A DNA stretch of 62,989 nt, taken from the NCBI GenBank assembly GCA_938017575.1, contig CALIJC010000009.1, forward strand, positions 1-62,989. Reading direction: 5' to 3'. The notes beneath the pieces were generated by a model. The model did not search any database and was not told the origin of the DNA. It worked only from the letters and a program-made list of their open reading frames with translations. The position numbers were made by a program, and so were the translations under genes. Source of the DNA: an uncultured Patescibacteria group bacterium. GTDB lineage: Bacteria; Patescibacteriota; JACMRA01. Each line of letters opens with the position of its first letter. The first letter of the stretch is position 1. Shown piece after piece: positions 5,920-57,236 of this stretch.

Positions 5920-7062
5920 CTACTGGATTTTATGGTTTTGATAATATTTACTCAGACCAGCTAGTCCAATCATAACTGCGTTATCGCCAGTCAAACTCAT
6001 TGGAGGCAATAAAAGTGGTAAATTTGAATCAACGTTTTGAATATATTTTCGTAGCATTGGGTTGGCAGAAACACCACCAGAAAGACCTATAGATTGAATA
6101 TTTCTATCAATAATTGCAGTTGATAATTTGTTTGTCAGTTGTCTGATAATTACAGTTTGGGCCGAGATACAGACTTTTTTAATAAAATCTAATTTTGGAT
6201 TTAGTTTCGAATTTGAATCTACTAGTAATTTTAATTCTGATTCGGTTAATTTTTGTTCAATGTCAAACCCTGGAATTTGAGGTTTTTCTAAATAATTCCT
6301 AACACTAGTTTTTAGCCCTGAAAACGAATAAGCAATGGTTTTATTTTTGCTCATTCCAATTGGAAAATTCATTGGGTTATCATAGTTTTCACCAGCAATT
6401 TTACTAATCCAAACACCTCCTGGGTAAGGAAGCCCTAGCATGCGACCAATTTTATCAAAACTTTCACCAGCTGCGTCATCCAGTGTTGCCCCAATAATTT
6501 CCCACTCGCTTGCAGAATCCAAAACCAAAATCTGAGAGTTTCCGCCGCTAACAATCAAATGCAGGTGAGGGAATATTTCATTATCTTTTTGAAATTTATG
6601 GTTTTTATCAAAAAAACAGCTAATCAAATGACCATTTAAGTGGTTAATATTGTTTATAGGAAATTTTTTTCCAGATTCTTTTTCTAAATAATAACGCAGT
6701 GATTTAGCAAACTCTATCCCAACACGCAGTGCAGATTTCAAACCAGGTTCAGTAGTTACAAAAATCTCTTGTAAATTCTCAGTTAGGTATTTAATTTTTT
6801 CATTAAAATCTCCTGGGATTTCTAGTTTCATAACTAATTCACGAAAAACAAAGTGAATTTGCTTACTATGTTCACGAGCTCCGATTTCTGGCACAACTCC
6901 ACCATATTTTTTGTGAATATTAATTTGCGACGAAATAATGCTAGATTTAACTTCGAAAGAATTTATATAATCGTAAAAACTATTTCCGGAAAAATTCTTA
7001 TCACCCTGGAGAATACAAATCGAAGTCTCATCGCAGCTTGTCTCAATAGCTATGAATAACAT
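5920..7062 (-). CDS. tsaD: tRNA N6-adenosine threonylcarbamoyltransferase
   Basis: IAIETSCDETS N-terminus and GGVSAN motif. I prefer the ATG at 7062 (MLFIAIE) over the TTG at 7098, because a perfect TATAAT sits 6 nt upstream of that ATG. Confidence 0.9.
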   Translation of the reverse strand: MLFIAIETSCDETSICILQGDKNFSGNSFYDYINSFEVKSSIISSQINIHKKYGGVVPEIGAREHSKQIHFVFRELVMKLEIPGDFNEKIKYLTENLQEIFVTTEPGLKSALRVGIEFAKSLRYYLEKESGKKFPINNINHLNGHLISCFFDKNHKFQKDNEIFPHLHLIVSGGNSQILVLDSASEWEIIGATLDDAAGESFDKIGRMLGLPYPGGVWISKIAGENYDNPMNFPIGMSKNKTIAYSFSGLKTSVRNYLEKPQIPGFDIEQKLTESELKLLVDSNSKLNPKLDFIKKVCISAQTVIIRQLTNKLSTAIIDRNIQSIGLSGGVSANPMLRKYIQNVDSNLPLLLPPMSLTGDNAVMIGLAGLSKYYQNHKIQ

Positions 7063-11268: not shown

Positions 11269-11598
11269 CTATAGAAAAACTGCAATTATAGTAGTAGTAA
11301 TCACCAAACAACCTAGTATATTCTTTTTTGTTTTTGATAACTCTTTGTTTCTCCAAATGACTCCTAGCAGTAAAATCAGAGCCAGCACTAGTAGTTTCAT
11401 CATTACCTTTAATCCGTTAATCTCATCAATCTTTAGTGATGTTAAAACAATACCAGAAATCAGCTGAATTATAGAAGCTAAATAAAATAGTCGAGGTAAT
11501 TTCATTTTTTGATCTTTTTTAATCATCCCTAGAGATGAAATTACACCAGCAAATCCAAACAGATGAATAAACCTAAATGATAAAATTAATAATTCCAT
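11269..11598 (-). CDS. Small integral membrane protein (hypothetical)
   Basis: 109 aa with about 4 hydrophobic helices. ATG start. Confidence 0.45.
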   Translation of the reverse strand: MELLILSFRFIHLFGFAGVISSLGMIKKDQKMKLPRLFYLASIIQLISGIVLTSLKIDEINGLKVMMKLLVLALILLLGVIWRNKELSKTKKNILGCLVITTTIIAVFL

Positions 11599-11693
11599 AT
11601 TTATGTTATGAGTAAAATATTATTATATTGTCAATTGACCGAAGTTATGCTATATTTATCGAGTTCGTTGTGAATTTCGTTGGAGAAGAAAAC

Positions 11694-11942
11694 GTGAAGA
11701 AGCAATCTATTATTTTATTTTTGCCATTACTTCTAATAACAGCCTTATTTTCTAGCTGTTCAAGTGAGCAGCAGGTGAACCCGCTGAACATAAACAAAGC
11801 AGGGGTGAATTCTGAAGAGCTAAAAAAAGAGAAAGGGACATCCAACTGTCAGTATACCAAGAGACAACTAGATGAAGTTAAAAAATCTGGATATACTAGT
11901 GAATTGAGACAGGCTGAGAAGCTAGTCGAAGAGTCTTGCTAA
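11694..11942 (+). CDS. Small lipoprotein (hypothetical)
   Basis: GTG at 11694 preceded by ggaga. Lipobox LFSSC within KKQSIILFLPLLLITALFSSCSS. The track ORF begins earlier, at 11628. Confidence 0.5.
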   Translation: MKKQSIILFLPLLLITALFSSCSSEQQVNPLNINKAGVNSEELKKEKGTSNCQYTKRQLDEVKKSGYTSELRQAEKLVEESC

Positions 11943-11982
11943 AGTAGCCAAATTCATCAAGTAGATTCATGCGCAGAGTTTA

Positions 11983-12897
11983 TTAACTTTGCGCTTTATG
12001 TTTTTCTATTACTTCTATGATTGGCGTAAATAAATCTGTCTGATAAAGAGTTTCTTTTTGGTTCAAAACAGTCAAAAGCCTTTCATATCCAGCACCCGTA
12101 TCAATGTTTCTCACAGACAAATCAGATAAGTTTTTTGGTTCGCTGTTTTCATCTTTTTCACCCTCATATTGCATGAAAACATTATTCCAGATTTCTACAA
12201 TTTGATTTTCCAAGAAATCCTCAATTTGTTCACCGGACAAATTTCCCAACACCGACTGCTCAAAATCTAATGGGTTTTCATCCATCAAATAATACACTTC
12301 TGAGCATGGCCCACACGGTCCTTTATAAGGGAGACCCCACCAATTATCATTTCCACTTTTTTGAGTTATTCTATAAATATATTTTTGATCTGGTTTGTTG
12401 TTTTCTGGGTTTTTAAAGTCATATTCGACACCTGTTGTTGGCTCCACACCAGATTTATCAAATAAATCCTGCCAAACTTTTATGGCTTCATGATCAGCCT
12501 TAACATCGCCGCAGCCTCTGTAAACTGTAACAAATAATCTACGAGGATCTAATCCTAAATAGTCCGGGCTAGTCAAAAATTCATACGTATATTTGATTGA
12601 ATCTTCTTTGAAATAATCACCTAGTGACCAAACACCCATCATCTCAAAAAAGGTTAGGTGTCGATTGTCGCCAACTTCTTCTATATCTCCAGTTCTAATA
12701 CATTTTTGTAAATTTGCTAAACGATTTCCTGCTGGATGAGTCTGGCCAAGTAAATATGGAATTAGTGGCTGCATTCCAGCAGTTGTAAACAAAACAGTCG
12801 GATCTTCTTTTGGCACTAAAGAGCTTGAAGGAAGTATCGAGTGGTTTTTTGATTCATAAAATTTGATAAATTTCTCTCTGAGTTCTTTGGAGTTCAT
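11983..12897 (-). CDS. Stand-alone alanyl-tRNA synthetase catalytic-core protein (truncated AlaRS homologue)
   Basis: Class II AlaRS N-terminal signature: FIKFYESKNHSILPSSSLVP..DPTVLFTTAGMQ, RHLTFFEMMGVWS and motif-3 region DTGAGYERL. The ORF stops about 40 aa after that. The tRNA-recognition, editing and C-Ala domains are absent. Confidence 0.85.
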   Translation of the reverse strand: MNSKELREKFIKFYESKNHSILPSSSLVPKEDPTVLFTTAGMQPLIPYLLGQTHPAGNRLANLQKCIRTGDIEEVGDNRHLTFFEMMGVWSLGDYFKEDSIKYTYEFLTSPDYLGLDPRRLFVTVYRGCGDVKADHEAIKVWQDLFDKSGVEPTTGVEYDFKNPENNKPDQKYIYRITQKSGNDNWWGLPYKGPCGPCSEVYYLMDENPLDFEQSVLGNLSGEQIEDFLENQIVEIWNNVFMQYEGEKDENSEPKNLSDLSVRNIDTGAGYERLLTVLNQKETLYQTDLFTPIIEVIEKHKAQS

Positions 12898-12899
12898 AA

Positions 12900-13307
12900 T
12901 TATTTAAATAGTTTAGAATGAATATAGATTATTGCACTAGTTATTATTATCCCGAGCGTGGAACTAACCAAGGCGTCTGTTAGTTGAGCCTCTGATTGGA
13001 TTAAACTTTTCTCTTCTTGTTTGTCTTCGCATTCATCTATCTCTTCTTGGGATAGCTTGTCTTCAATAGGACCAAAATCCTGCCTGCCATTGATAATTTT
13101 TGAAGGGTTCTCATCCCAGCCACCAGCTTTTTCTACAATACATTGTTCATAAACAAAAGTCTCTCTACCTGGTTTAAGATCTGTAAAAACAAAGTTAACT
13201 AAAATTGATATTAACAAAGTGTAGATAGAAATCCCCAAGATTAAAATACTCACACCAGTTACAAAATAATAATAGAATTGTTTTGCCCAATGTGAATTTG
13301 ATTTCAT
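12900..13307 (-). CDS. Two-TM membrane protein, paralogue of the 13313..13651 gene
   Basis: N-terminal NSHWAKQFYYYFVTGVSILILGISIYTLL compares with NSHWVKILYYYLVIAGCLLFFSIGLYWLS in its neighbour. C-terminal TM helix. Confidence 0.5.
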   Translation of the reverse strand: MKSNSHWAKQFYYYFVTGVSILILGISIYTLLISILVNFVFTDLKPGRETFVYEQCIVEKAGGWDENPSKIINGRQDFGPIEDKLSQEEIDECEDKQEEKSLIQSEAQLTDALVSSTLGIIITSAIIYIHSKLFK

Positions 13308-13312
13308 AGTTA

Positions 13313-13651
13313 TTAATCTTTAATTTTTATAATTTTGGTGTGTAAGAAATATATTGCAACTGAGACCACCATCATCAGTGTCGAATTAAGAATATCTTCT
13401 TGGTATCTGATACTAATCTCCTTTGATCTGCGAGATTCGTCAACATATGAAAACGTGTTTTCGTTAACAACAGGAAAGAAAGTATTGATAATTACAGCCC
13501 TACTAAGCCAGTATAAGCCAATCGAAAAGAACAAAAGACATCCTGCAATCACTAAATAATAATATAATATCTTTACCCAATGGGAATTATTCTGACTTTC
13601 TTTGACTGGTTTATTAATCTTTTTTGGAGATTTTTTTTTATTTTCAGACAT
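13313..13651 (-). CDS. Two-TM membrane protein, paralogue of the 12900..13307 gene
   Basis: Same architecture and shared N-terminal motif. Tandem arrangement with a 5-nt gap. Confidence 0.5.
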   Translation of the reverse strand: MSENKKKSPKKINKPVKESQNNSHWVKILYYYLVIAGCLLFFSIGLYWLSRAVIINTFFPVVNENTFSYVDESRRSKEISIRYQEDILNSTLMMVVSVAIYFLHTKIIKIKD

Positions 13652-13671
13652 AAGTTAGAAAATGAGAAACT

Positions 13672-14652
13672 TTATAAGATCTCAATTTTTTGGATTTTTA
13701 TTTCCTGATTTGGTCTACCATCTTTTGTATCAGCTTCACTATCATCAACAGGATCAACCTCATCGGTGATTTTATCAAGCACGGCAAAATCTTCGCTGTC
13801 AACAATTCCAAAAACAGTATACTGTGCAGGCAAGGTTGTGTCATTCAAAGTTACAAAGAATTGACTACCAGCAGAGTCAGGAGCTGATGTTTTAGCCATA
13901 ATCAATAATCCTTTTCGGTATTTTACAGTTCCAGTGGTTTTGTCGAAATCTTCATATAGACTAGTGTCACTAAACACAGGGTCGTTTGTAATTGCTAATG
14001 AACCTTCAGATTGATTTGTTTCTGGCTCAACTTCCCAAAGTTCATCTGGAATTGGTGTACCAAATGCACTTGCCCCTCCTGTTCCAGTTCCGTCTGGGTC
14101 TCCACCCTGAATAACGCTAAATGTAGGACCTTCAACCATTCTATGGAAAATCTGGTTGTTATAATATTCTCGATAAGTTAACCTCAGAAAACTCTCTGTT
14201 GTTTTTGGTGCGGCCTGATCTTGGAGGGCAACTTTTATTTCACCATAATTAGTTTCAATAGCTACGTTTTGGTCTTGGAAATTCAAAACCTCATCTTCGG
14301 CAGCTAATTGGTCTTCGTTGGTTTGGTTATCTTCTTGGGCTTGGGCAGTTTGGTTGTCGTCATTAAATTCTTCCTCTCCAGTAATCTTTGGAATATATGT
14401 GTTATTTAACCAAACAAATCCTGCAATTATAGCCACACTAACAATAACTTTGAAAATCTTTGACAAGGCTTTTGTAAAATCCAGATCCTTTTGTTTTTTC
14501 TCAGTTGATGGGTTGTTTATGACTGTTTCTTTGATTTCAGTAGGGTTTTTTTCTACCTTGGTTTTTGTCTCAGCAATTTCTTTTTTGCTTGCTTTAGAAA
14601 CTGTTTTTTTGATAACCTTTTTCTTCTTTTTAGAGGTAACTTTTTTAGCCAT
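13672..14652 (-). CDS. Cyclophilin-type peptidyl-prolyl isomerase with Lys-rich N-terminus and TM anchor
   Basis: FHRMV..VIQGGDPDGTGTGG and GLLIMAKTS..SAGSQFFVT motifs. The N-terminal 60 aa are K-rich and are followed by a TM helix. Confidence 0.85.
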   Translation of the reverse strand: MAKKVTSKKKKKVIKKTVSKASKKEIAETKTKVEKNPTEIKETVINNPSTEKKQKDLDFTKALSKIFKVIVSVAIIAGFVWLNNTYIPKITGEEEFNDDNQTAQAQEDNQTNEDQLAAEDEVLNFQDQNVAIETNYGEIKVALQDQAAPKTTESFLRLTYREYYNNQIFHRMVEGPTFSVIQGGDPDGTGTGGASAFGTPIPDELWEVEPETNQSEGSLAITNDPVFSDTSLYEDFDKTTGTVKYRKGLLIMAKTSAPDSAGSQFFVTLNDTTLPAQYTVFGIVDSEDFAVLDKITDEVDPVDDSEADTKDGRPNQEIKIQKIEIL

Positions 14653-18036: not shown

Positions 18037-18115
18037 TAATGCTTGGGTAATTCGGGTCAGATTTTCTCTGGCCTGCTTCTTTGACTAAAAATTGGATTTA
18101 TATCATGGATATAAA

Positions 18116-19600
18116 ATGGAAAAATTTTCTTCTACAAATTTATCAAAAGCCTCCAAACAATTATGGGAGTTTCTTTTGCCAAGTCTAAAATATTTAGAAG
18201 CTGCTGATTTGGCCAAAGTTGAATTGGCATTTTTGCAGATGGTCGAATCTCATAAAGATCAACGTAGAAAAAGTGGAGAATTCTACATAATTCATCCAGT
18301 TCATGCCTGTCAGACGCTAGCCAATATGCAAATGGATAGTGATACGCTTTCTGCCTGTTTAATGCATGATGTTCCAGAAGACACAGAAACAAGCCTGAAA
18401 GATTTGGAAGAAAATTTTAACCGCGAGATTGTTTTTTTGATCTCTGGAATTACCAAACTAGGCAAACTAAAATACAAAGGTGAGGATAGATATGCGGAAA
18501 ATCTACGGAAAATGTTTGTAGCTATGAGTCGAGATCTCAGAGTTATTTTCATAAAACTAGCTGATAGACTGCATAATTTACAGACCCTGGGTCACTTACC
18601 CGCTCATAAAGCTCATCGAATAGCCCTAGAAAGTCTAGAGATTTATGCACCAATTGCTCACAGGCTAGGAATTAACTATTTCAAAGGGGAGATCGAAGAT
18701 GCAGCTTTTCCTTACGTCTACCCAGATGAATACAAGCAGTTTAAATCTATTTCCGAGGTTGAAATTAATAAAAGGAGAAAGCAAGTTGAAAAAATAATTA
18801 AAAGAGTTCATAAAATCTTGACCGAAGAATCAATAGAAAATTTTCGTGTAAAAGGTAGAGCCAAAAGATATTATTCACTGTATCAAAAGTTAAATTCCCA
18901 GAATATTAAAATTAACCAGGTCTATGATTTGGTTGCTGCCAGGATTATTACCAGCAGTGTTGATGAGTGTTATCATGTACTTTCACTAATTCACAAGCAT
19001 TTCACCCCAATTGATAAAAGGCTAAAAGACTATATCCAAAAACCTAAACAAAATGGTTATCAAAGTATTCATACCAGTGTTAAAGATAATCAAAGTGGTG
19101 TAGTTTTTGAGGTTCAAATTAGAACTGATCAGATGGATGAGCAAGCTGAATTTGGAGTCGCCTCGCATTGGTCGTACAAAAATAAAAATAAAAGTAGTTT
19201 TGCCGACCCCAATAATCTCAAATGGATTAGTGAGCTTGTTTCACTTTCTCGCCAGGAAATTTCCAGTGAGGACTACCTAAAACATGTTAGGCTAGATTTG
19301 TTTCAAGATAGGATTTTTGTAATGACACCCAAAGGTGATGTAATTGATCTGCCAGCTGGGGCTACTCCAATTGATTTTGCCTACAGGATTCACCAACAAA
19401 TCGGTAATAAAGCTGTGAGAGCTTTTGTGGGAGGTCAGCCGATTAAATTAACAGATGAATTAAAAAACGGTGACCAAGTTGAAATCCAAACTGACAAAAA
19501 TCAATCGCCCAAACCAGATTGGCTGCGGGTGGTTAAAACTCACCAGGCTACCAGTCAAATCAGAAATAATTTGCGAAAACAAGGAATAAAATTAATATAA
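18116..19600 (+). CDS. RelA/SpoT homologue, (p)ppGpp synthetase/hydrolase (HD + synthetase + TGS only)
   Basis: HD motif MHDVPEDT, synthetase region RAKRYYSLYQKL...YQSIHT, TGS region VMTPKGDVIDLPAGATPIDFAYRIH. The protein ends right after TGS. I prefer the ATG at 18116 (MEKFSS). Confidence 0.9.
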   Translation: MEKFSSTNLSKASKQLWEFLLPSLKYLEAADLAKVELAFLQMVESHKDQRRKSGEFYIIHPVHACQTLANMQMDSDTLSACLMHDVPEDTETSLKDLEENFNREIVFLISGITKLGKLKYKGEDRYAENLRKMFVAMSRDLRVIFIKLADRLHNLQTLGHLPAHKAHRIALESLEIYAPIAHRLGINYFKGEIEDAAFPYVYPDEYKQFKSISEVEINKRRKQVEKIIKRVHKILTEESIENFRVKGRAKRYYSLYQKLNSQNIKINQVYDLVAARIITSSVDECYHVLSLIHKHFTPIDKRLKDYIQKPKQNGYQSIHTSVKDNQSGVVFEVQIRTDQMDEQAEFGVASHWSYKNKNKSSFADPNNLKWISELVSLSRQEISSEDYLKHVRLDLFQDRIFVMTPKGDVIDLPAGATPIDFAYRIHQQIGNKAVRAFVGGQPIKLTDELKNGDQVEIQTDKNQSPKPDWLRVVKTHQATSQIRNNLRKQGIKLI

Positions 19601-25304: not shown

Positions 25305-26003
25305 ATGCTTACATCCACTGATTTACCACATGCAATAATATTTAATCAGGTTATTGAATCATTCACTAATACACAGTCAGTTGGAATTGATGTTTTTAAA
25401 AAGGTACGTGATAGTTCCGTAGAAATAATTTGCCAAAAATTAATTGAATGCATTGATCGAGGGTATGTATCTATACTGCCAATTCCATATGTTAAAAATT
25501 TATCCTATTGGGAAAACTTTGATAATCCAAATGGTGATTTTTATAGAAATCTAACCCCTAATATAAATCTAATTAATTTACTAAAAGATCTCTGTTGTTT
25601 AGATGACAGTGATCTGCTAAGTAATTATTATTTCGTTCAAGAAAATATACTATCATTTTCCACAGAAACCATACTCTGTCGCCAGAGAGCAGGAAAGGAA
25701 CAAATAAAGCTTGTTCTAACTATTCCAGCTTGTTTATGCGAGAATGATCCAGTATGGACGCAAGTCATCATGATAACCACAATATATTATATGTTATGGC
25801 ATGCATATGATATCTGGGGAGATGGTCTTGGTCTGTGTGATATGAAAATTGTAGATTTAAAGACAGATTTGTTCACAGGGTGGTTTGTTTTAAATCATGC
25901 TCCAGAAGTATTAAAATATTGCCATTATAAAAACTTGGCAGAAAAATTTACAAATAGTGGCAAAACAGTTGAATCACTATTGCAACACATTAAATTCATA
26001 TAG
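25305..26003 (+). CDS. Hypothetical protein, 232 aa, paralogue A
   Basis: SD gaggtaa. Shares motifs with the 26327..27025 product: W.Q...(I/V)T..Y(Y/F).(L/M)W.A(Y/F)..WG.G and L.D(L/I)FTG.FV. Confidence 0.6.
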   Translation: MLTSTDLPHAIIFNQVIESFTNTQSVGIDVFKKVRDSSVEIICQKLIECIDRGYVSILPIPYVKNLSYWENFDNPNGDFYRNLTPNINLINLLKDLCCLDDSDLLSNYYFVQENILSFSTETILCRQRAGKEQIKLVLTIPACLCENDPVWTQVIMITTIYYMLWHAYDIWGDGLGLCDMKIVDLKTDLFTGWFVLNHAPEVLKYCHYKNLAEKFTNSGKTVESLLQHIKFI

Positions 26004-26326: not shown

Positions 26327-27025
26327 ATGAAAAAAAATATCAGCCCACAAGTTAAGTTTCTATATGAGGCTATAATGTCTCTGTCTAGAGCTACTCATCC
26401 TGAGAATTGTTCTGCAGGGTTTGTGTTTCACGATGATTGGATTTTGAAAAAACTATTTAATAAATTCATTAACTTTTTCAAACAAGGTAAAATAAAAATA
26501 TTATTAATGCCCAAGGTTCCCAATATTAAATATTGGATTGAGGTGGAAGGGGAGATACCAGTTGATGGTGACTATTATAGAGAATTAGGTAAATCTAAAG
26601 ATATAATTAAGGTTTTAACAAAACTCGGGTTTTTAACACCTGATGACTATAATAACTCTGCTAAAATGAGTGATATGATTAGTGATTTCTGTTCAGATTT
26701 TATGAGTGGCCGGACTGCTAATGATCAGTTAATCCTATCAGTTCCTAATCGTATTCACCATGAAGAGTGTCTGTGGGTACAAACAAATCTAGTCACATCT
26801 GTCTATTTTATTATGTGGTCTGCTTTCTCAATGTGGGGATCAGGTCAGATGCTGGAAGAATCAGACGTGATGGCACTTACTGATATTTTCACGGGGCGAT
26901 TTGTTTGTTTATATGCAAAGGAATTAATGATATACGAGCATTATTATAGTCTGGTAACTGCTTTTCAAGAATATGGATCTTGTGATGATTATGTTTTAAT
27001 TCAAACCCTTATTGATAATTTATAA
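26327..27025 (+). CDS. Hypothetical protein, 232 aa, paralogue B
   Basis: SD gaggaagga. Same length and same C-terminal motifs as the 25305..26003 product. Confidence 0.6.
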   Translation: MKKNISPQVKFLYEAIMSLSRATHPENCSAGFVFHDDWILKKLFNKFINFFKQGKIKILLMPKVPNIKYWIEVEGEIPVDGDYYRELGKSKDIIKVLTKLGFLTPDDYNNSAKMSDMISDFCSDFMSGRTANDQLILSVPNRIHHEECLWVQTNLVTSVYFIMWSAFSMWGSGQMLEESDVMALTDIFTGRFVCLYAKELMIYEHYYSLVTAFQEYGSCDDYVLIQTLIDNL

Positions 27026-48965: not shown

Positions 48966-49238
48966 ATGACTTGAGGTGGGTTTACCTTTATCGCAGTCCC
49001 ATTTGTTGGGGATCTTAGGCGAGCCAGTCACAAAACTGGTCACAATACATGTAGCTCATTTTCCGGGAAAGTTATCATGACTAGCTGTCATACGGTAGTG
49101 TGTATTCTACCAGCCCCCGTGCGATAACAAAGGCATAGTCTAATTATGTTGACTAATCAGTCCGGGAACAGTCCAGAAAGTTCCACCCCGTCATACCAAA
49201 TACCCTGTTGCAATCTAGCTCAGGGTATTTATCATTTT
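48966..49238 (+). ncRNA. Candidate structured RNA of about 270 nt, class unknown, upstream of der
   Basis: Visibly GC-richer than its flanks. No credible ORF: the track ORF from 49208 is only the der upstream extension. Closing helix: 48966-48970/49190-49194 plus 48975-48979/49183-49187. Second long-range helix: 48985-48995/49120-49133. Local hairpins: 49024-49039, 49094-49111 and 49136-49155. Terminator hairpin ataccctg/cagggtat (49200-49228) followed by ttatcatttt. Confidence 0.55.
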
Positions 49239-49294
49239 ATATATTTTCTATTCTGTTGACATTTTTGCATATCTATGACAGGTTGATTATTAAT

Positions 49295-51259
49295 ATGACC
49301 CAACCTAAAATCCCAACTGTTGCCTTGTTTGGATTACCTAATTCTGGTAAATCAACACTTCTCAACAGATTAACTGAATCTAAAAAAGCCATTGTTGCTC
49401 GTGAGGCTCACACAACCCGTGATATTAATTATGGTGAGGTTGAGTGGGATGGTTACTATTTCAAATTAGTTGATACAGGTGGTTTGGTGCCGGATCCCAA
49501 AGACAAAATTCAAAAACAAATCCAAATAAAATCTTGGGTGGCTCTGGAGCAAGCTGATATATTAGTATGGGTAATCGATCGCAAACAAAACCCAGAAACT
49601 ATTCATGAATCCATAATCCAAAGAGTTTGGAAAACAGGTAAACCAGTCACAATTTGTATTAACAAAGTAGACGATCCCAATATGGACGCCAGTGTCGGAG
49701 ACTACGCCCACCTCGGAGGTTTTGATTTTGTGAATATTAGTGCTACTACCAGCTATGGTACGGACAAACTACTCGATGGAATTATCAAAAAAATGGGTGA
49801 ATTAGGTTTTGAACCAGTTTCTCACCAAGAACTACCAAGCGATCAAATACTAGATAGTAAATATAAAAAAAAGAAATCCAAAAAGCTAACTCGAGACAAA
49901 GAAGGCAATTTTGTAGTCTTGCGTGAAAATACCGAAGATGGGCCAGGTCTGTTTTATTCCAGCCAAGAATCTCAAATCGTTAACCCAATTGATAACATTA
50001 TTACCGATATTGGTGGGGTAGTGACTGCTGATAATATCATCAACGAAGAGTACGTCGAGCAATTAAAATCCCTCAAAGAAAGCGGAGCTAGTTTATATTA
50101 TTTAACAACCTTCACCCAGGTACAATTAGACCCAATCATCGAAAAACTTCCTGATTTGTTTGATGGAGGTTTATGCAAGGATGATACCAAATGGACAAAA
50201 CCTGATCCGTACGTTTACCGTGAGCTAGCTGAAAAGTACAATTTTGAACCTAGTAAATCTATTTTTATTGACGACAGTCAAACCAATGTTGTGGCAGCTA
50301 GAGAAGTCGGTTTTTTTGGGATCCATTATCTATATGGCAAAACAAATATCTCAGCTATTTACGAAGAAATTATTTCAGGGCAATTAAACAAAATTCCAAA
50401 CCCTCCCAAAGTCCTTTTTATCGGTAAGCCAAATGTAGGAAAATCAAGCCTGTTTAATAGTATGATTGGTGAGGAAATTCAGATTGTAACTGACGTAGCT
50501 GGTACTACAATTAGCGTAAATGATACTCTATTAAACCGTGAGGTGTTTCATAATTTCCGGTCCGAGGATGGGTTTGTTAATATTTCCACTCCAGTTTCCA
50601 AAGACTACGTACTGCTAGATTCTACCGGAGTTCGTAAACCTGGGCAAAGAACCATGGGCGCTGAATCATTTGCCACCTTTAGAACTATTCAAGCAGCTCA
50701 CGAGTCAGACGTAATTTGTCTAATCATGGACGCTACAACACCTTTGACACACCAAGATCAAGTTGTCGCAGGTATTTGCCAAGAAGCAGGTAAGGGTATT
50801 GTTTTGGTAATAAATAAAATGGATATTGTTGATGCCGAGCAAAAACAGGCCTTTTTGAAAAGTTTCCACCATAAATTCGCCTTCTTGAAAATCGATAACA
50901 CAGTATTTGTTTCAGCCAAAGAAAATATTGGCATGAGAGAATTATGGCAATCAATTGATTTGGCACTGGAAGACAGGAAAAAAACCATCTCCAGAGAGCA
51001 GGTTCGAAAACTTTTCAATTACCTGATGAAAAAAAAGAGGCCAAACAAATTACGAAACAAAAAACGACCTGTCATCTACGATTTATTGTACAAACAGTCC
51101 AGCCCGCCAACTTTTGAATTATTAGTCAAAGACAAAGAAGCAATTCACTGGTCATGGGTCAGGTTTCTAGAAAACCAAGTCCGCCGACAATTCCGTTTCA
51201 CAGCCTCTGGAGTCAAAATCAAACTAGTAGAGGTAGACAGAAAAAACGTAGCTAAATAA
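49295..51259 (+). CDS. der: Ribosome-associated GTPase Der/EngA with a roughly 200-aa inter-G-domain insertion carrying a HAD-like domain
   Basis: ATG at 49295 (MTQPKIPTVALFGLPNSGKSTL). GD1 has INKVD. GD2 has GKPNVGKSSL and INKMD. C-terminal KH-like domain. Insert at about 49805-50407 with HAD-IA-like motifs IITDIGGV, LYYLTT, TKPDPYVY and IFIDDS. Confidence 0.9.
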   Translation: MTQPKIPTVALFGLPNSGKSTLLNRLTESKKAIVAREAHTTRDINYGEVEWDGYYFKLVDTGGLVPDPKDKIQKQIQIKSWVALEQADILVWVIDRKQNPETIHESIIQRVWKTGKPVTICINKVDDPNMDASVGDYAHLGGFDFVNISATTSYGTDKLLDGIIKKMGELGFEPVSHQELPSDQILDSKYKKKKSKKLTRDKEGNFVVLRENTEDGPGLFYSSQESQIVNPIDNIITDIGGVVTADNIINEEYVEQLKSLKESGASLYYLTTFTQVQLDPIIEKLPDLFDGGLCKDDTKWTKPDPYVYRELAEKYNFEPSKSIFIDDSQTNVVAAREVGFFGIHYLYGKTNISAIYEEIISGQLNKIPNPPKVLFIGKPNVGKSSLFNSMIGEEIQIVTDVAGTTISVNDTLLNREVFHNFRSEDGFVNISTPVSKDYVLLDSTGVRKPGQRTMGAESFATFRTIQAAHESDVICLIMDATTPLTHQDQVVAGICQEAGKGIVLVINKMDIVDAEQKQAFLKSFHHKFAFLKIDNTVFVSAKENIGMRELWQSIDLALEDRKKTISREQVRKLFNYLMKKKRPNKLRNKKRPVIYDLLYKQSSPPTFELLVKDKEAIHWSWVRFLENQVRRQFRFTASGVKIKLVEVDRKNVAK

Positions 51260-52930: not shown

Positions 52931-54172
52931 CTAAAATAAGTTCGCGGGCTTCTCCTGCTTTCGTACAGGGACACTCTGAACAGTTCTGCTAGGTGGGTTT
53001 ACCACCGAGTTGTCCTGTGCTGGAGGCTGGCTCCGAACAGGTTGACGCTGTACAGGTGTTCGTCGAGTTACAGGCTGCCGTTTAATTTGGCGCTGCGGAG
53101 TTCTACGAACCTGAACCGTGCCGTCGACACAGTCTGAGAAGTTGGTGTCGCCTTGCGCCACCATCTCGTCTACAATAGACTTAGCTAATGCTGCTGCATC
53201 AGCCAAAGACTGGCCATCTCGACCCTTGATTCCGCGAGACCTAATGTCTGCGGTTAATAGCCGCTCCATTCTGGTATACATAATCCGTCTTGCGACTGGA
53301 TTATGGGCATGCCTCGAGAGGCGTGCCAAGCCGGATTCGGCCTTGGAGATGATGATCTCAGCAAGGAGTTCCTGCTGTGAAGGGTGGATCATTCCGGCGG
53401 TTGCCCGTCCGAAATTAAACCCTCCCAGAAAACCTGCATCTACACCAACGTTAGTCGAAGTCTTGCCATCGGCAATGTTGTACTTGACATACTTCGGGCC
53501 AGATCCTGGAATACAGATGATATCACCAATGGTGCTACCATTGCTGTCACCGAAGTTGGTGACATTGGTACGGTTACGAGAAAACGATCTAGCGTCAGTT
53601 TCCCGACTGCTAGAATCTGTGACATTCAAGTTCACATCACCGGCGTTAACGTCACCTTGTTTAACACCGACGTTGTTCTCGGAGTTTGTACCAAGGTTAT
53701 TGTCACCAGTCCGGGTAGGCCCGGTTGTAACATCAGTCTTTGAAGACTGGCCAAGTGAGTTATTAATTGGTCCACTACCAGAGTTGATATCTCCGATAGT
53801 TGTACCAGCATTGATGTTGTTTTCATTATGACCATTAAGGCCATTTTTTATGTCAGTAACACTAGCATCATGTTGGTTCAGGGTCGAACTTGCCCCAGAC
53901 TGAGACTTTGGACTAAATGCACCATCTCCACCAACAGAAATGTCATTCTCGTTATTCGAAGACTGACCCTGTTGGGTCTTGATGAACTGCTGGTACTCCA
54001 GCCACTGCTGTGGCGTGAGAGTGTTTGTGTTGCCATTATGATTCTCAGAGTGCTGTCCTTGCTGGACTCCACCTGCATTAGCAGGTAACAATGAAGTGAA
54101 CAGGACTGTTCCTGAGGCAGCAACAGAGCAAAAGGTTACTCCAAGGATAGAAAAAAGACGTGTAGTTTTCAT
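52931..54172 (-). CDS. Secreted Asn/Gly/Ser/Thr-rich protein with Pro/Arg/Gln-rich C-terminus (hypothetical)
   Basis: ATG at 54172 (MKTTRLFSILGVTFCSVAASG...ANA) preceded by ggaga. Degenerate G-D-x-N type repeats (IGDINSGSG, TGDNNLGTN, KQGDVNAGDVNLNV, FGDSNGSTIGD). Chosen over five overlapping ORFs in other frames. Confidence 0.65.
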   Translation of the reverse strand: MKTTRLFSILGVTFCSVAASGTVLFTSLLPANAGGVQQGQHSENHNGNTNTLTPQQWLEYQQFIKTQQGQSSNNENDISVGGDGAFSPKSQSGASSTLNQHDASVTDIKNGLNGHNENNINAGTTIGDINSGSGPINNSLGQSSKTDVTTGPTRTGDNNLGTNSENNVGVKQGDVNAGDVNLNVTDSSSRETDARSFSRNRTNVTNFGDSNGSTIGDIICIPGSGPKYVKYNIADGKTSTNVGVDAGFLGGFNFGRATAGMIHPSQQELLAEIIISKAESGLARLSRHAHNPVARRIMYTRMERLLTADIRSRGIKGRDGQSLADAAALAKSIVDEMVAQGDTNFSDCVDGTVQVRRTPQRQIKRQPVTRRTPVQRQPVRSQPPAQDNSVVNPPSRTVQSVPVRKQEKPANLF

Positions 54173-54292
54173 GATTTTCTCCAACCCCCGTATAGGGGAA
54201 CGTGTATAGTGTGTAAAACAACTCAAAAAAAACTAAACAATCCCAAAGGTTACCCAGTGGCCTGCCTAGTTATGATTTTTCAAGTTACTCTA

Positions 54293-54593: not shown

Positions 54594-56735
54594 ATGGCAA
54601 AAAAAACAATCGCAGAAACTCTGAAAAATAGTAATAAAAACGAGCCAGGTGTCAAAAAATCATCTGCAAACAGAAAAAGGCTAACAATTGGTTCAGCCAA
54701 AAAAAATCGTGCCAAAATTCCAAAAATCACCAAGATTTTCAAAAAGAAACCTACCGAAGTTAACAAAGAAAAATCCAAAGAAGCGCTGGAAACAGTAAAA
54801 ACTCGCCGAGCCATTAAAAAAGCTAATCCCAACGAATTAGTTACTCGTAAAGGTATTTTGGGGCTGAATTTGACCAGTACTGCTGATGCTAACAGAAAAA
54901 AAGCCTTGGCTGATGATTCAATCGAACAACGTGGTTCACGTCGTTACCGTGTAACCGAAGATGGTGTCAAAGTAAAGATGAAGAAGATTACCAAAAAAAG
55001 GACTTCTAAATCCAAAAAAAGAACCCTCAAAAAGTTCATTGAAAACGACGACGCTTTATACCCAGAGTTCCAAAAACAACCAGAAAAGTTCAAAAAGAAT
55101 GTTATCGAGGTTATTAAACAAGGTGTAACTCGTGGTTTCGTCACCGAAGATGAGCTATTGTATCTAATCCCAAATCCTGAAAATAATATTGAACTGGTCG
55201 AAGACATTATGGATCTTTGTGAGGACAGCGGTTCTCCAGTCAAATTCGATAGTACTTTGGATACTCTGTGGGATGCTCTGCAAAATGAAGAAGAAGTCAA
55301 AAAACGTGAAATCGAACTAGCTTCCAAATTAAAAAACTCTCTCGCAGGTGATGTTTCTGGGTCAGATCTCAAAGATGATGCTGTTCAAAACTACATTCGT
55401 GATATTTCTAGGTATCCTTTGCTAGCCAAAGAAGAAGAGGTTGAACTAGCCAAAAGGATTGAACAAGGGGATCAAGCAGCTAAATTAACACTTTGTAATT
55501 CCAACCTTCGTTTGATTGTTCACTCCGCTAAAAAATACATGGGTCGAAACCTAGCGTTTTTAGATTTGATTCAAGAAGGTAATATTGGTTTACTCCGTGC
55601 AGTTGAAAAATTCGATTGGAGACGTGGTTATAAATTCTCAACCTACGCCAGCTATTGGATTGACCAAAGTATCCGCCGCGCCTTGGCTGATCAATCTCGT
55701 CCAATTAGACTACCTGTTCACGTTGAAGAAAAACTAAACAGGTTCAAAAAAGAAAAAAGAGCTTTGGTTGATTCACTAGGTAGAGAACCAAGCGACGAAG
55801 AAATAGCAGAGAAATTGGAGGTAGATATTGACACAGTCTATTATTTCAAGAGGATCTCTCAGGATACAGTTTCTATCGATACAATGGTCGGGCACAGCGA
55901 AGATAGTGATACCCAAGTTGTTGAAACTATCGAAGACAACCGAACAGCCCCTCCTATTGATGTAGCAAGTAATAAAATCTTGCGTGATTACATGATGGAG
56001 ATCGTTGATGATTGTCTAGAGCCACGTGAAAAAAAGGTTATCTTGCTTCGTTTTGGTTTGGACGGTACTGGAGTAGCTCATACATTAGAGGAAATTGGAG
56101 AAGTTTTCCAAGTAACACGTGAGCGTGTTAGACAGATTGAAGAGGTTGCCTTGAATAAAATCAGACAACACCCAAGTAGCTATAAATTGGTAGATTTCTT
56201 GGAAGGTATTCATCCACAAACATTTGCACCAAGTAGCTACAAGAAAGAAAACGAGGTTGAGCTGGATATTCAATTCAACAAAAAAATTGACCTGGAAAAA
56301 GTCGTGGCTACTATTGTTGAGCAAATCAATACAAATAAATGTAGTTTGTATTTCCTTCGTGGAGATATGGGGGTAGGTAAAACTACAATCGTTCAAAATG
56401 TCTGCAAAAAAATCAGCACTATCGAAGAAGCAACTAGCCCAACTTATGCGTTAATGCAAAAATATAAACTTAGCAGCGGAAGCAGTGCCAGAAATACTGG
56501 TAATTTCGAAGAAGTTGTTCACATGGATTTACATAGATTGAAACAATTATCTCAAGAAGATCTAGGCTGGATAGAAGAAGAATTAATCAATACAAACAAT
56601 GTGATTTTTGTGGAATGGCCAGAAAAACTACTCAAAAAACAACATTTAATTCAGTTCCTTGGTAGAAAATTCCTAATAATTGAATGTAAGATTGGTAAAA
56701 AAGGAGATCATTATTTCAGAATCAAAGAGAATTAA
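54594..56735 (+). CDS. rpoD: RNA polymerase sigma-70 (RpoD-type) fused in frame to a C-terminal TsaE (YjeE) P-loop ATPase domain
   Basis: Lys-rich N-terminus. Region 2: DLIQEGNIGLLRAVEKFDWRRGYKFSTYASYWIDQSIRRA. Region 4.2: TLEEIGEVFQVTRERVRQIE. From about 56259: LYFLRGDMGVGKTT...ATSPTYALMQKY...HMDLHRL...FVEWPE, which is the TsaE signature. A single uninterrupted 713-codon ORF. Confidence 0.9.
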   Translation: MAKKTIAETLKNSNKNEPGVKKSSANRKRLTIGSAKKNRAKIPKITKIFKKKPTEVNKEKSKEALETVKTRRAIKKANPNELVTRKGILGLNLTSTADANRKKALADDSIEQRGSRRYRVTEDGVKVKMKKITKKRTSKSKKRTLKKFIENDDALYPEFQKQPEKFKKNVIEVIKQGVTRGFVTEDELLYLIPNPENNIELVEDIMDLCEDSGSPVKFDSTLDTLWDALQNEEEVKKREIELASKLKNSLAGDVSGSDLKDDAVQNYIRDISRYPLLAKEEEVELAKRIEQGDQAAKLTLCNSNLRLIVHSAKKYMGRNLAFLDLIQEGNIGLLRAVEKFDWRRGYKFSTYASYWIDQSIRRALADQSRPIRLPVHVEEKLNRFKKEKRALVDSLGREPSDEEIAEKLEVDIDTVYYFKRISQDTVSIDTMVGHSEDSDTQVVETIEDNRTAPPIDVASNKILRDYMMEIVDDCLEPREKKVILLRFGLDGTGVAHTLEEIGEVFQVTRERVRQIEEVALNKIRQHPSSYKLVDFLEGIHPQTFAPSSYKKENEVELDIQFNKKIDLEKVVATIVEQINTNKCSLYFLRGDMGVGKTTIVQNVCKKISTIEEATSPTYALMQKYKLSSGSSARNTGNFEEVVHMDLHRLKQLSQEDLGWIEEELINTNNVIFVEWPEKLLKKQHLIQFLGRKFLIIECKIGKKGDHYFRIKEN

Positions 56736-56757: not shown

Positions 56758-56781
56758 CCCCCAAACAAATGGGGGTTTTAT
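56758..56781. terminator. Hairpin terminator between convergent genes
   Basis: ccccc aaacaaat ggggg followed by tttta. Confidence 0.7.
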
Positions 56782-56801
56782 ATTGTCAGGGTTTGTGTTT
56801 A

Positions 56802-57236
56802 TTAACATTCTTCTGTGGAAACATATGTAGATCTAACCAGTACTGAATAGGCAGTGATTAGACTTTCTTGTAGCCAAGGGCAATAATTTACAAACCTATC
56901 AAACCTTTCAGGGTTCAAAATAGTTTCAATAATAGTTTTGTTGATCTCTACGTTGCCAGAGTTTTTCTTCCAGTGGATAGCCACAGCTAATATATTTATA
57001 TACCACCTGAGAGTTTGTTCAGATTCCAACTGAGTATAAATACTACTAGGTCGAAATACAAAACCATCCAAAAGAATTATATTAAATTCATTCCAAGTGT
57101 CTTCGAGTTCTCTGCGAATTCCAGGGTATTGTTCATCAATTGCTCCAATAAAACAGCCATAAGCCAATCCCAGGCTATTCGTGCTAATTCTGGAATTGGG
57201 TGTAATTACTAGTCGTACAAATGGTCTATTCTCCAC
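56802..57236 (-). CDS. Hypothetical protein (144 aa)
   Basis: GTG start. Candidate promoter TTGACC-N17-TTATAC at 57269-57297. No recognisable motif. Confidence 0.5.
   Translation of the reverse strand: MENRPFVRLVITPNSRISTNSLGLAYGCFIGAIDEQYPGIRRELEDTWNEFNIILLDGFVFRPSSIYTQLESEQTLRWYINILAVAIHWKKNSGNVEINKTIIETILNPERFDRFVNYCPWLQESLITAYSVLVRSTYVSTEEC

Follow-up and report, generated by a model that had tools for sequence, protein, structure and literature searches.

An in-frame fusion between a primary-type sigma-70 factor and a bona fide TsaE domain, the ATPase of the tRNA t6A pathway, is encoded in the window analyzed here, a stretch of 62,989 nucleotides of DNA from an uncultured Patescibacteria group bacterium. 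Both halves belong to the most conserved and essential of bacterial functions, and as proteins they are normally unconnected. The combination of Sigma70 with PF02367 recurs in every one of the 120 best protein clusters, which show 57-100% identity, and in 22 GTDB species-representative genomes, and the fusion has been inherited vertically in one Patescibacteria clade. The TsaE part is probably still a working t6A ATPase that has become tethered to the primary sigma factor, a reading to which we assign a rough probability of 0.6.

A fusion that is stable over a clade suggests, by 'Rosetta stone' reasoning, that the sigma-70 operon and the t6A machinery are functionally related, a link hinted at since 1987 by the proximity of tsaD and rpsU-dnaG-rpoD in E. 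coli and never explained. The protein is also one of the rare primary sigma factors that end in an enzyme domain, informing what the C-terminus of region 4 can tolerate, and a natural construct for probing roles of TsaE beyond the resetting of TsaD; the kinase, stress and cell-wall phenotypes reported for TsaE remain puzzling. For a poorly named CPR lineage it offers a clean synapomorphy and an annotation marker. Since databases give one function per protein, 'tsaE' or 'rpoD' could be recorded as absent by mistake when pathways are reconstructed.

Architecture of the Fusion Protein

The gene is a single unbroken reading frame running from an ATG start to a TAA stop (713 codons), and its features are collected in Table 1. 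An initial annotation, made from the letters of the DNA, had described this frame as carrying sigma-70 regions 1.2 to 4.2 followed by a complete TsaE domain, and on all of these points it was correct. The Pfam models for regions 1.2, 2, 3 and 4 each score above the gathering cutoff, the TsaE domain is recovered by profile, sequence and fold searches alike, and the motifs had been placed properly, with GDMGVGKTT at 56361-56387 and SPTY, HMDLHR and EW at the positions listed.

Table 1. Features of the fusion gene, its expected partner and neighboring genes, numbered along the window.
Feature	Position	Strand	Basis
tsaD, catalytic t6A transferase, expected partner of the fused TsaE	5920..7062	-	PF00814, 195.8 bits
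alaS-core gene	11983..12897	-	neighborhood comparison
Cyclophilin PPIase gene	13672..14652	-	neighborhood comparison
Complete sigma::TsaE fusion gene	54594..56735	+	ORF call, domain profiles, recurrence in >120 clusters / 22 species
Lys/Arg-rich N-terminal extension, aa 1-160, pI 10.6	54594..55073	+	invariant columns, pLDDT, pI
Helical region-1.1-like domain, aa 161-246	55074..55331	+	weak Sigma70_r1_1 match and modeled helices
Sigma-70 region 1.2, aa 262-295	55377..55478	+	PF00140, 52.4 bits
Sigma-70 region 2, aa 302-369 (core binding, -10 recognition)	55497..55700	+	PF04542, 68.2 bits
Sigma-70 region 3, aa 379-450	55728..55943	+	PF04539, 51.8 bits
Sigma-70 region 4, aa 473-525	56010..56168	+	PF04545, 56.6 bits
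Sigma C-terminal tail, aa 526-538 (H..S.KL.DF..G)	56169..56207	+	invariant columns
Tether, aa 539-565	56208..56288	+	pLDDT, per-region identity, spacing counts
TsaE (YjeE/YdiB/UbK family) P-loop ATPase domain, aa 566-713	56289..56732	+	profiles, fold
Walker A GDMGVGKT, G590-T597	56361..56384	+	120/120 clusters
Switch I SPTY, S615-Y618	56436..56447	+	S615 and P616 invariant
Switch II HMDLHR, H643-R648	56520..56537	+	H643, D645 and R648 kept; canonical Tyr/Phe replaced by His
EW motif E674-W675	56613..56618	+	invariant; 120/120 clusters
Intrinsic-terminator-like hairpin CCCCCA-loop-TGGGGG with T-run	56758..56784	+	23 nt past the fusion stop codon

Within the sigma half almost all alignment columns of region 2 are invariant across the clade, as is the -35 recognition helix-turn-helix of region 4, TRERVRQIE. 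The match to region 1.1 (Sigma70_r1_1, PF03979) over aa 165-216 is weak, 17.9 bits and below the 22.5 cutoff, and the AlphaFold2 model has helices at aa 164-246 with pLDDT of ∼80. The 160-residue extension that precedes them is predicted to be largely low-confidence or disordered and contains three clade-invariant stretches, SS..RK.LTIGS, VTRKGILGLNL and GVKVKMKK. Beyond region 4 the tail retains H526, S529, K531, L532, D534, F535 and G538 without exception; its end at aa 538 is the point where an ordinary RpoD would stop.

The best NCBIfam models for the sigma half are those of RpoD, all of them under cutoff (354 bits vs 555 and 340.8 vs 572, with TIGR02393 at 283 vs 354). RpoD equivalog status in NCBIfam is thus not reached, and for this reason we refer to the half as RpoD-like and primary-type and not as a certified equivalog. 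JGI names the fusion protein 'RNA polymerase primary sigma factor', and identity with the anti-phage sigma MzaA of NCBIfam was rejected, its 285 bits vs a cutoff of 800 reflecting generic sigma-70 similarity. With Group 1 RpoD/SigA factors the fusion has in common regions 1.2, 2, 3 and 4, the -35 helix and the typical C-terminal tail, and its helical domain at aa 164-246 may correspond to region 1.1; it differs from them in its appendage of ∼190 C-terminal residues that includes an enzyme domain and in its basic, clade-specific N-terminal extension. Region 2.3 reads YASYW, whereas E. coli RpoD has YATWW. A search of 0.4 Mb, a few percent of each genome, turned up no further sigma-70 gene.

The TsaE assignment is secure at the level of both profile and fold. 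PF02367 matches aa 566-681 with 76.8 bits (gathering cutoff 26.6), the C-terminal 173 residues score 66.0 bits against TIGR00150, the TsaE equivalog of NCBIfam (cutoff 60.1), and a profile made solely from stand-alone TsaEs gives 118.9 bits. When the domain model, with a pTM of 0.77, is compared with the PDB by Foldseek, the six best matches are all TsaE/YdiB/HI0065 structures (5np9, 6n9a_E, 1htw, two chains of 6s84, and 6nak_D; E of 3e-7 to 1.5e-6, probability 1.00, TM of 0.58-0.63 normalized to target length), and the first match after them has E of 8e-3.

The motifs for catalysis and for contact with TsaD are, as read from the alignments, intact. G590, G593, G595, K596 and T597 of Walker A are invariant and switch I conforms to SP[TS][FY] in 118/120 clusters; in the T. 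maritima complex the switch I peptide of TsaE enters the active site of TsaD (PMC6009658, PMC6614819). The EW motif in TmTsaE makes contacts to Mg2+ and the γ-phosphate. The helix α-3 sequence WIEEE is (near-)invariant across the fusion clade. The one departure from the canonical pattern is the aromatic position of switch II, which is H in 107, Q in 7, D in 5 and K in 1 of the best 120 fusion clusters and never Y or F, as opposed to Y in 139, H in 2 and F in 1 of 142 stand-alone TsaEs. The equivalent residue in TmTsaE is Tyr82, and the Y82A mutation abolishes ATPase activity (PMC6614819). With neither Tyr nor Phe ever found here in the fusion clade, the ATPase/reset mechanism may therefore be altered.

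Comparison with stand-alone TsaE (YjeE/YdiB) thus gives a protein that passes the same Pfam and TIGRFAM models, adopts the same predicted fold, has Walker A, SPT(F/Y), HxD..R and EW, and comes from genomes that also have a TsaD with D11 and K166 conserved. What sets it apart, besides switch II, is an N-terminus covalently joined to a sigma factor and, relative to HI0065, an insertion of ∼10 residues in the stretch from switch I to switch II. The nearest stand-alone TsaEs are 32-38% identical to it. In the 0.4-0.46 Mb searched, a few percent of each genome, neither a second tsaE nor a tsaC was found.

The two halves are separated by a tether, predicted to be disordered, of ∼20-25 residues between the end of region 4.2 and the TsaE domain. 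The linker of ∼15 aa in the initial annotation was real but underestimated in length, with pLDDT below 50 over aa 539-556 (32-48 for the tether as modeled by AlphaFold2) and the Pfam TsaE match beginning at aa 566. Flexibility is predicted for the tether, and the full-length AlphaFold2 model, as judged from its pTM of 0.30 and the disordered linker, lacks confident inter-domain packing. The tether sequence is variable, with 35% mean pairwise identity, and the spacing from DFxEG to Walker A lies within 48-53 residues, being exactly 51 in 80/111 clusters; this constancy may reflect a defined geometry and would then suggest more than passive tethering. Production of a separate TsaE from within the gene is not supported: the tether has no conserved internal Met that could serve as an internal start (68/111 clusters have none at all), and matches to an internal promoter occur at chance level, 9 found vs 8.0 expected. 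The terminator-like hairpin downstream is bidirectional and common to the convergent gene at 56802..57236.

TsaD and the Gene Neighborhood

The gene of the expected partner of the fused domain, tsaD, is indeed encoded separately and on the opposite strand, at the place given by the initial annotation; with a TTG start its frame reaches 7098. The protein matches T. maritima TsaD at 1.5e-43 and keeps D11, H109/H113, K166 and the Fe-ligand Asp. Across the clade the K166 motif xDK is found in 120/120 and the D11 motif SCDET in 118/120 TsaDs, with metal ligands kept; TsaD is retained together with the residues that contact TsaE. The SGGH turn, against which Phe64 of TsaE stacks, reads SGGN clade-wide, and there are thus lineage-specific changes on both sides of the TsaE-TsaD interface, Tyr to His in switch II and SGGH to SGGN in TsaD. 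Orthologs of TsaD were located on at least 9 contigs that bear the fusion as well, the contigs being matched by their identical lengths; the 0.46 Mb searched (a few percent of each genome) contained no TsaB-like paralog.

In relatives, tsaD, alaS-core and ppiase lie directly upstream of the fusion gene and divergent from it (L005, L009 and L029-L032). In the present window the alaS-core/PPIase block is ∼40 kb from the fusion gene and interrupted by purL. The tsaD gene of E. coli is oriented divergently from rpsU-dnaG-rpoD (Nesin et al. 1987, as cited in PMC7241418), and the likeness to the relatives listed is that a t6A gene is divergently linked to the gene of the housekeeping sigma factor. 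The difference is that the E. coli arrangement is one of neighborhood only and involves tsaD, whereas here it is tsaE that is translationally fused to sigma.

Function of the Tethered TsaE Domain

The mechanism by which TsaE acts on TsaBD is known (PMC6614819), and from it a role for the fusion can be proposed. In its ATP form the fused TsaE would enter the cleft between TsaB and TsaD, hydrolyze ATP and so reset TsaD, which could then start another cycle of t6A37 synthesis, while the sigma part, on its tether, stays clear of the cleft. Sigma itself would act as the housekeeping initiation factor, its C-terminus beyond region 4.2 presumably solvent-exposed and tolerant of the TsaE appendage. 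Appendages at the N-terminus of TsaE are tolerated elsewhere: His-TEV-TmTsaE was crystallized in the complex (PMC6009658), and GFP-UbK strains behave as their untagged counterparts (PMC6733980). The fusion would then ensure that two functions, both essential and constitutive, are expressed together in a tiny genome, and even if it is a mere convenience of this sort it is a tidy case of genome streamlining. Conserved contact motifs on both proteins, taken with a tether that is predicted to be flexible, favor a TsaE domain that would still be serving TsaD.

A natural fusion within the t6A system is the archaeal Kae1-Bud32 protein (MJ1130), in which an ATPase/kinase-like accessory subunit is likewise attached; the site of Bud32 on Kae1 corresponds to that of TsaE on TsaD (PMC6009658; reference 99 in PMC9654439). 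The Kae1-Bud32 protein joins two subunits of one complex, whereas here the ATPase is joined to a protein of a different process.

An alternative, which we regard as unlikely, is that the domain is a built-in regulatory module, TsaE having been co-opted or given a dual purpose as a sensor of ATP/ADP or of TsaBD/tRNA that controls sigma in cis. It could operate by docking on region 4 or on RNAP, or through sequestration of sigma on TsaBD, and would resemble the fused C-terminal domains of ECF41-type factors or partner-switching anti-sigma systems. Consistent with such a module are the near-fixed spacing from DFxEG to Walker A in the face of a drifting tether sequence, the clade-wide replacement of the switch II Tyr by a residue seen in only 2/142 stand-alone TsaEs, the WIEEE helix, and the linkage of tsaD to the fusion gene in a subclade and to rpoD in E. 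coli. The model without confident packing between the domains argues against it, as does the conservation of all TsaD-contact motifs, which is what an ordinary TsaE would show; sensor roles of TsaE are, moreover, nowhere established.

The ECF41 and ECF42 factors belong to group 4, are without regions 1.2 and 3, and have extensions that are non-enzymatic, SnoaL-like or TPR. They resemble the fusion in being sigma-70-family proteins with a conserved extra domain past region 4, whereas here a primary-type sigma with regions 1.2 and 3 present bears a P-loop ATPase; the comparison is therefore one of analogy and not of membership, the fusion not having the group 4 architecture. The conserved extra domain after region 4 in ECF41-type sigmas is documented (PMC4598750), and fused C-terminal regulatory domains on sigma factors are in this sense known, which counts in favor of a regulatory module.

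Also in its favor is that TsaE and tRNA compete for one TsaBD cavity and that binding of TsaE depends on ATP (PMC6614819, PMC6009658). A tethered TsaE that still serves TsaD, the reading favored above, would have a secondary consequence. Since TsaE docks on TsaBD only with ATP and not alongside tRNA, the fraction of sigma sitting on TsaBD would track the ATP level and the load of unmodified tRNA, and this fraction could couple transcription capacity to tRNA maturation. That coupling is possible, being hinted at by the partial synteny with tsaD and the lineage-specific changes at the interface. The initial annotation had offered such a coupling, or else a nucleotide-sensing role for TsaE, as what the fusion might do. 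In its strongest form, which we consider doubtful, the fusion would be a coupling device in which the sigma factor carries an ATP-dependent TsaE 'plug' and is partitioned between the TsaB-TsaD cleft and a free or RNAP-bound state. The pool of sigma free for initiation, or the activity of sigma at promoters, would then report on ATP and on the backlog of unmodified tRNA; the Tyr-to-His and SGGH-to-SGGN changes and the fixed tether length would have arisen to serve this role. The plug would compete in the cleft with unmodified ANN-decoding tRNA. If this were true, tRNA maturation in a minimal cell would be linked to global transcription directly, at the protein level.

Quite improbable is a third possibility, that the domain is a Ser/Thr/Tyr P-loop kinase of the UbK type tethered to its substrate, be it sigma, RNAP or transcription regulators nearby. 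TsaE and UbK are one family with four motifs in common, the Walker A, HxD, SPT and EW motifs of the fusion are all intact, UbK1 of P. gingivalis phosphorylates the response regulators RprY and PorX (PMC13241743), and UbK of S. pneumoniae autophosphorylates (PMC6733980). The Tyr of HxDxYR, however, which is the mapped phosphosite of UbK1, is absent from 120/120 fusion clusters, leaving the other three motifs, and the known UbK kinases are stand-alone proteins. The conservation of R648, of SPT[F/Y] and of D11 and K166 in TsaD is better explained by TsaD binding. The physiological relevance of the kinase activity of UbK is debated, and growth of S. pneumoniae depends on ATP hydrolysis and not on autophosphorylation (PMC6733980).

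Recurrence, Selection and Origin

The initial annotation had stated that no precedent for such a tethering was known. This holds for the literature searched, in which no description of a sigma-TsaE fusion was found, but the fusion is no rarity: public databases already contain more than 120 clusters, each labeled 'sigma factor' or 'TsaE'. The same annotation had pointed to relatives as the place where the fusion could be confirmed or would fall apart. The best clusters and species representatives carry it, the C-terminal part is assigned to TsaE by profile, and none of the sibling genomes examined has a stop codon or a shift of frame in the stretch from region 4.2 to the P-loop. The full-length fusion frame is intact in 20/22 species representatives, while in L008, in L020 and in 3 additional contigs from metagenomes the reading frame continues through the junction. 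Only the L008 copy is broken, by a 1-nt indel within sigma region 2.4. The frame of L001 is open further upstream. When unfused sister sigmas were sought by means of the clade-specific N-terminal signature, the 3 confirmed loci among the matches listed were all fused.

MAGs of the clade are labeled Gracilibacteria, Peregrinibacteria or SR1. The clade uses the standard code with TGA as stop, and masking of stops by code 25 was rejected: the frames are intact under table 11, the L007 gene ends in TGA, and TGA stops occur in the window.

In order to gauge selection, differences at 4-fold degenerate sites were compared with those in amino acids in place of a formal dN/dS ω by region, saturation of dS in all pairs ruling that out. 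Between even the most similar sequences the 4-fold sites differ by 0.50-0.67, the amino acids of the TsaE part by only 0.09-0.29. Saturated synonymous sites in the presence of (near-)invariant motifs show that both halves are under purifying selection.

A neutral or decaying fusion, created by the accidental loss of a stop and leaving the TsaE part a dispensable passenger with its function supplied by another gene, is very improbable and, as judged from conservation, largely refuted. Gene fusions are common in reduced genomes and the TsaE part does evolve faster than the sigma core (mean pairwise identity 0.49 vs 0.81); yet despite synonymous saturation the catalytic motifs do not vary over more than 120 clusters and 22 species, none of the assemblies examined has a truncation or a stop at the junction, and the TsaE fold is predicted with high confidence. 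An assembly or sequencing artefact in the window (a lost stop, frameshift or chimeric join), for which only the general possibility in MAG contigs speaks, is next to impossible, as the junction is in frame in independent NCBI, JGI, ENA and Logan assemblies, with the sigma tail motif and the N-terminal helix of TsaE flanking a tether of conserved length.

A single origin of the fusion is suggested by the isolation of the fusion-type TsaE as a sequence group, whose members score 111-209 bits before stand-alone TsaEs follow at ≤79 bits. Loss of a stop between neighboring genes as the route of origin finds no support in the contexts of the nearest stand-alone tsaE genes, which read RNase H-ComEC-MBL-x-tsaE, with no rpoD. 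The organisms with these stand-alone genes are not close relatives, since one of them uses TGA for Trp.

Architecture of the Fusion Protein

The motifs and coordinates from which the initial annotation described a sigma factor joined to TsaE proved correct, with Pfam recognizing both halves of the reading frame (see table). TIGR00150, the NCBIfam TsaE equivalog, scores 66.0 bits for the C-terminal 173 aa of the fusion (cut-off 60.1), and the C-terminal part matches the sequences of solved TsaEs, among them HI0065 (1htw, 4.5e-10) and the B. subtilis YdiB and T. maritima TsaE proteins. An AlphaFold2 model of aa 527-713 alone is confident from ∼aa 557 on (pTM 0.77, pLDDT >88), and a Foldseek comparison with the PDB ranks six TsaE/YdiB/HI0065 entries first (E 2.9e-7 to 1.5e-6, probability 1.00), followed by a generic AAA+ protein at 8e-3. 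The linker between the halves, earlier put at about 15 aa, is indeed present but somewhat longer, with pLDDT <50 over aa 539-556. Because the full-length model reaches an overall pTM of only 0.30 and the tether is disordered, docking of TsaE on sigma is not confidently predicted.

The N-terminal extension of the sigma part contains the invariant motifs SS..RK.LTIGS, VTRKGILGLNL and RGSRRY...GVKVKMKK. In sigma region 2.3/2.4 the fusions read YASYW(I)(D/E)Q, with residues that are (near-)invariant across the clade, where E. coli sigma-70 has YATWWIRQ; relative to E. coli, the first Trp of the promoter-melting W-dyad is replaced by Tyr and the next Arg by an acidic residue.

Features of the fusion gene and of other genes in the window
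Feature	Position	Strand	Remarks
Fusion ORF	54594-56735	+	Single unbroken ORF, 713 codons, ATG to TAA
N-terminal sigma extension	aa 1-160 (54594-55073)	+	Clade-specific, very basic, pI 10.6
Basic N-terminus	aa 1-84	+	Disordered, full-length model
Small beta-rich segment	aa 82-128	+	Weakly predicted, full-length model
Region-1.1-like domain	aa 164-246	+	Helical, full-length model
Sigma70 region 1.2	aa 262-295	+	Pfam
Sigma70 region 2	aa 302-369	+	Pfam
Region 2.3/2.4 motif	aa 351-355 (55644-55658)	+	
Sigma70 region 3	aa 379-450	+	Pfam
Sigma70 region 4	aa 473-525	+	Pfam
Sigma2, sigma3, sigma4 helices		+	As usual, full-length model
Tether	aa 539-556	+	Disordered, full-length model
TsaE (PF02367)	aa 566-681	+	Pfam, 76.8 bits (gathering cut-off 26.6); well folded in full-length model, pLDDT 80-91
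pyrG-to-PPIase block	777-14652		Syntenic with L031 1329-9661
tsaD	5920-7062	-	PF00814, 195.8 bits
TsaD SGGN turn	aa 172-175 (6538-6549)	-	Glycine-rich, beside TC-AMP pocket, where the TsaE switch I Phe stacks
purL	7516-11226		1236 aa
alaS-core	11983-12897	-	∼300-aa stand-alone protein; PF01411 positions 1-260 of 552
RelA/SpoT-family gene	18092-19600	+	HD, RelA_SpoT synthetase and TGS domains; no ACT domain
Tandem paralogous ORFs	25305-26003, 26327-27025	+	232 aa each, no Pfam match
Der/EngA-type double GTPase	49208-51259	+	Two MMR_HSR1 domains, KH-like C-terminal domain; HAD-family insert at aa ∼263-383
Upstream neighbor of fusion	52931-54226	-	431 aa, signal-peptide-like N-terminus, no Pfam match

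Recurrence and Origin

When the full-length protein is used as query, both Pfam domains are found in every one of the best 120 clusters at 90% identity (57-100% identical to the query, 623-780 aa), drawn from assemblies in NCBI, JGI, ENA and Logan. Scanning a single genome for each GTDB species recovered fusion-type TsaE in 22 species, 20 of which carry an intact fusion ORF of 709-780 aa; at locus L020 the gene is cut off at the contig end, and at L001 the frame stays open farther upstream. Three further metagenome contigs, found through the sigma N-terminal signature, likewise hold single-frame fusions. With the junction in frame across independent assemblies, an assembly artefact is effectively excluded. 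In the closed 1.27 Mb chromosome OY969926.1 (L008) a single-base insertion at 9490-9510 places the gene in two frames; it lies within sigma region 2.4, away from the junction, and its probable cause, given that the affected region is essential, is a consensus error in long reads and not a true mutation.

An exhaustive search of 1.84 billion representatives with the TsaE part alone gave five at 111-209 bits. One is the fusion P0106, of 747 aa, and the others are shorter; among these four, the proteins of 275 and 386 aa have long stretches ahead of the TsaE match, probably as remnants of truncated fusions. Scores then drop across a gap to ordinary stand-alone TsaEs of ∼150 aa, at no more than 79.6 bits and 32-38% identity. 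The fusion clade is narrow and probably of single origin. Labels of the metagenome-assembled genomes (MAGs) carrying the fusion disagree (Gracilibacteria, Peregrinibacteria, SR1, Patescibacteria, Paceibacterota, with some obvious mis-binnings), and GC content is low in all of them (30-44%). Translated with table 11 the fusion genes stay whole, and TGA ends the copy at L007, so that the lineage uses the standard code despite some Gracilibacteria/SR1 labels.

Selection on the Two Halves

Mean pairwise amino-acid identity over 21 species is 0.81 for the sigma core, 0.56 for the N-terminal extension, 0.49 for the TsaE part and 0.35 for the tether. Synonymous sites are saturated in all species pairs, with 0.50-0.67 of 4-fold degenerate sites differing even between L016 and L017, whose proteins are 95% identical, while just 9-29% of TsaE residues differ in the closest pairs; both halves are under purifying selection. 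Walker A and EW are found in 120/120 clusters and SP[TS][FY] in 118/120, and in an alignment of 25 sequences H643 and D645 are invariant and R648 is kept in at least 90%. A decaying passenger domain, with its motifs kept in the face of such synonymous saturation, is effectively excluded.

The tether drifts in sequence and not in length: 48-53 residues separate the sigma tail motif DFxEG from Walker A, exactly 51 of them in 80 of 111 clusters. No conserved Met usable as an internal start occurs in the tether across these 111 clusters, promoter-like matches within the fusion gene stay at chance level, and a terminator-like hairpin lies 3' of the stop codon.

Interface with TsaD and Proposed Function

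In T. maritima TsaB and TsaD clamp TsaE from either side, ATP is enclosed where TsaE meets TsaD, and the SPT(F/Y) peptide of TsaE (switch I) reaches into the TsaD active site; TsaE side chains that contact TsaD include Tyr82 of switch II (stacking on Lys166), Arg83 (salt bridge to Asp11) and Phe64 (stacking on the turn S134GGH137). ATP hydrolysis resets TsaBD for more turnovers, and TsaE and tRNA occupy the same cavity (PMC6009658, PMC6614819). The fusion retains SPT(F/Y), the switch II H, D and R, and EW. The window's TsaD, encoded apart from the fusion as had been noted, retains Asp11 (SCDET), His109/His113 (NHLNGH), Lys166 (FDKIG) and the Fe-ligand Asp (GDNA); xDK is invariant in its best 120 relatives and SCDET is present in 118.

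Two positions have changed in this lineage, and both map to the TsaE-TsaD interface. The aromatic position of switch II is Y in 139, H in 2 and F in 1 of the stand-alone TsaEs; in the fusions neither Tyr nor Phe occurs there (H 107, Q 7, D 5, K 1). The TsaD turn, SGGH in solved TsaDs, is altered clade-wide, reading SGGN[ST] in 119 of the best 120 relatives. These substitutions may mark a pair that still works and has co-adapted, or a mechanism that has been altered.

We favor, at a probability of roughly 60%, a protein that would be these organisms' primary-type sigma factor, to whose C-terminus a flexible tether joins the cell's TsaE, and in which the TsaE domain would still perform the ATP-dependent reset of TsaBD in t6A synthesis. 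The fusion would then lock two essential functions into co-expression in a ∼1.2 Mb genome. TsaE homologs tolerate N-terminal appendages: TmTsaE with an N-terminal His-TEV tag was crystallized in the TsaBDE complex (PMC6009658), and S. pneumoniae with GFP-UbK (UbK being the kinase name for the TsaE/YdiB family) at the chromosomal locus resembled non-fused strains in growth and appearance (PMC6733980). Within the 0.4-0.46 Mb of clade sequence examined a few percent of each genome, we found no separate tsaE, no tsaB, no tsaC and no other sigma factor. Presumably the lineage has no other tsaE and the fusion is its housekeeping sigma.

A regulatory role, in which ATP-dependent, tRNA-competing binding of TsaE to TsaBD would modulate sigma availability or activity, would fit the constant length of the tether, the substitutions at the interface and the linkage to tsaD; we nevertheless regard it as unlikely. 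A UbK-type kinase function, given that the Tyr of the HxDxYR motif is lost in the fusions, is most improbable.

The literature searched, including a 2022 review of t6A enzyme diversity, holds no description of a sigma-TsaE fusion, and public annotations give these proteins one label or the other, 'sigma-70 family / primary sigma factor' or 'TsaE', but not the two together. The novelty lies in the domain architecture, which combines two familiar families, and does not amount to a new type of system; enzymatic domains at the C-terminus of primary sigma factors are nonetheless unusual.

Genomic Context

The fusion gene in the window is monocistronic, with a secreted-protein gene diverging from it on one side and a small gene converging on it from the other; the product of the former has a long Asn/Gly/Ser/Thr-rich region followed by a Pro/Arg/Gln-rich tail. 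ORF clustering shows that in relatives the commonest upstream neighbor is a divergent cyclophilin PPIase gene, directly upstream in 12 loci and often followed by alaS-core, a ∼300-aa gene whose match is restricted to the N-terminal catalytic core of class II AlaRS. Kept beside the PPIase and fusion genes across the clade (L002, L005, L007-L009, L022, L024 and L029-L032), alaS-core may represent a split AlaRS or a paralog derived from AlaRS.

In a subclade (L005, L009, L029/L030, L031/L032) whose fusion proteins share 69-79% identity with that of the window, tsaD too is upstream, in the order pyrG - miaA - ... - pilin - tsaD - alaS-core - ppiase <-> sigma::tsaE, except that in L009 tsaD lies ∼1.7 kb beyond alaS-core. 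The window keeps the pyrG-to-PPIase genes in unchanged order, but purL has been inserted after tsaD, several small membrane-protein ORFs have been added to the block, and the fusion gene now lies ∼40 kb from it. Contigs of equal length place TsaD and the fusion together in at least nine assemblies. In E. coli K-12 tsaD adjoins rpsU-dnaG-rpoD divergently, a linkage that goes back to Nesin et al. 1987 (cited in PMC7241418), and the fusion offers a handle on this old tsaD-rpoD association.

Among stand-alone tsaE genes, the nearest lack rpoD as a neighbor, but their host organisms are unrelated. Two of their loci, L027 and L028, have a common neighborhood, RNase H - ComEC - MBL - x - tsaE; at L028 (5001-5435) the codon for the invariant EW Trp is an in-frame TGA, so that TGA encodes Trp (code 4) in this 775-kb, 26% GC genome.

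Other Genes in the Window

Given the RelA/SpoT-family gene, stringent-type signaling may operate alongside the fusion in this small genome. Elsewhere in the window are the tandem pair of paralogous ORFs and a Der/EngA-type protein with its HAD-family hydrolase domain inserted between the GTPase domains; two other loci have homologs of the latter (family F3) close to the fusion gene.
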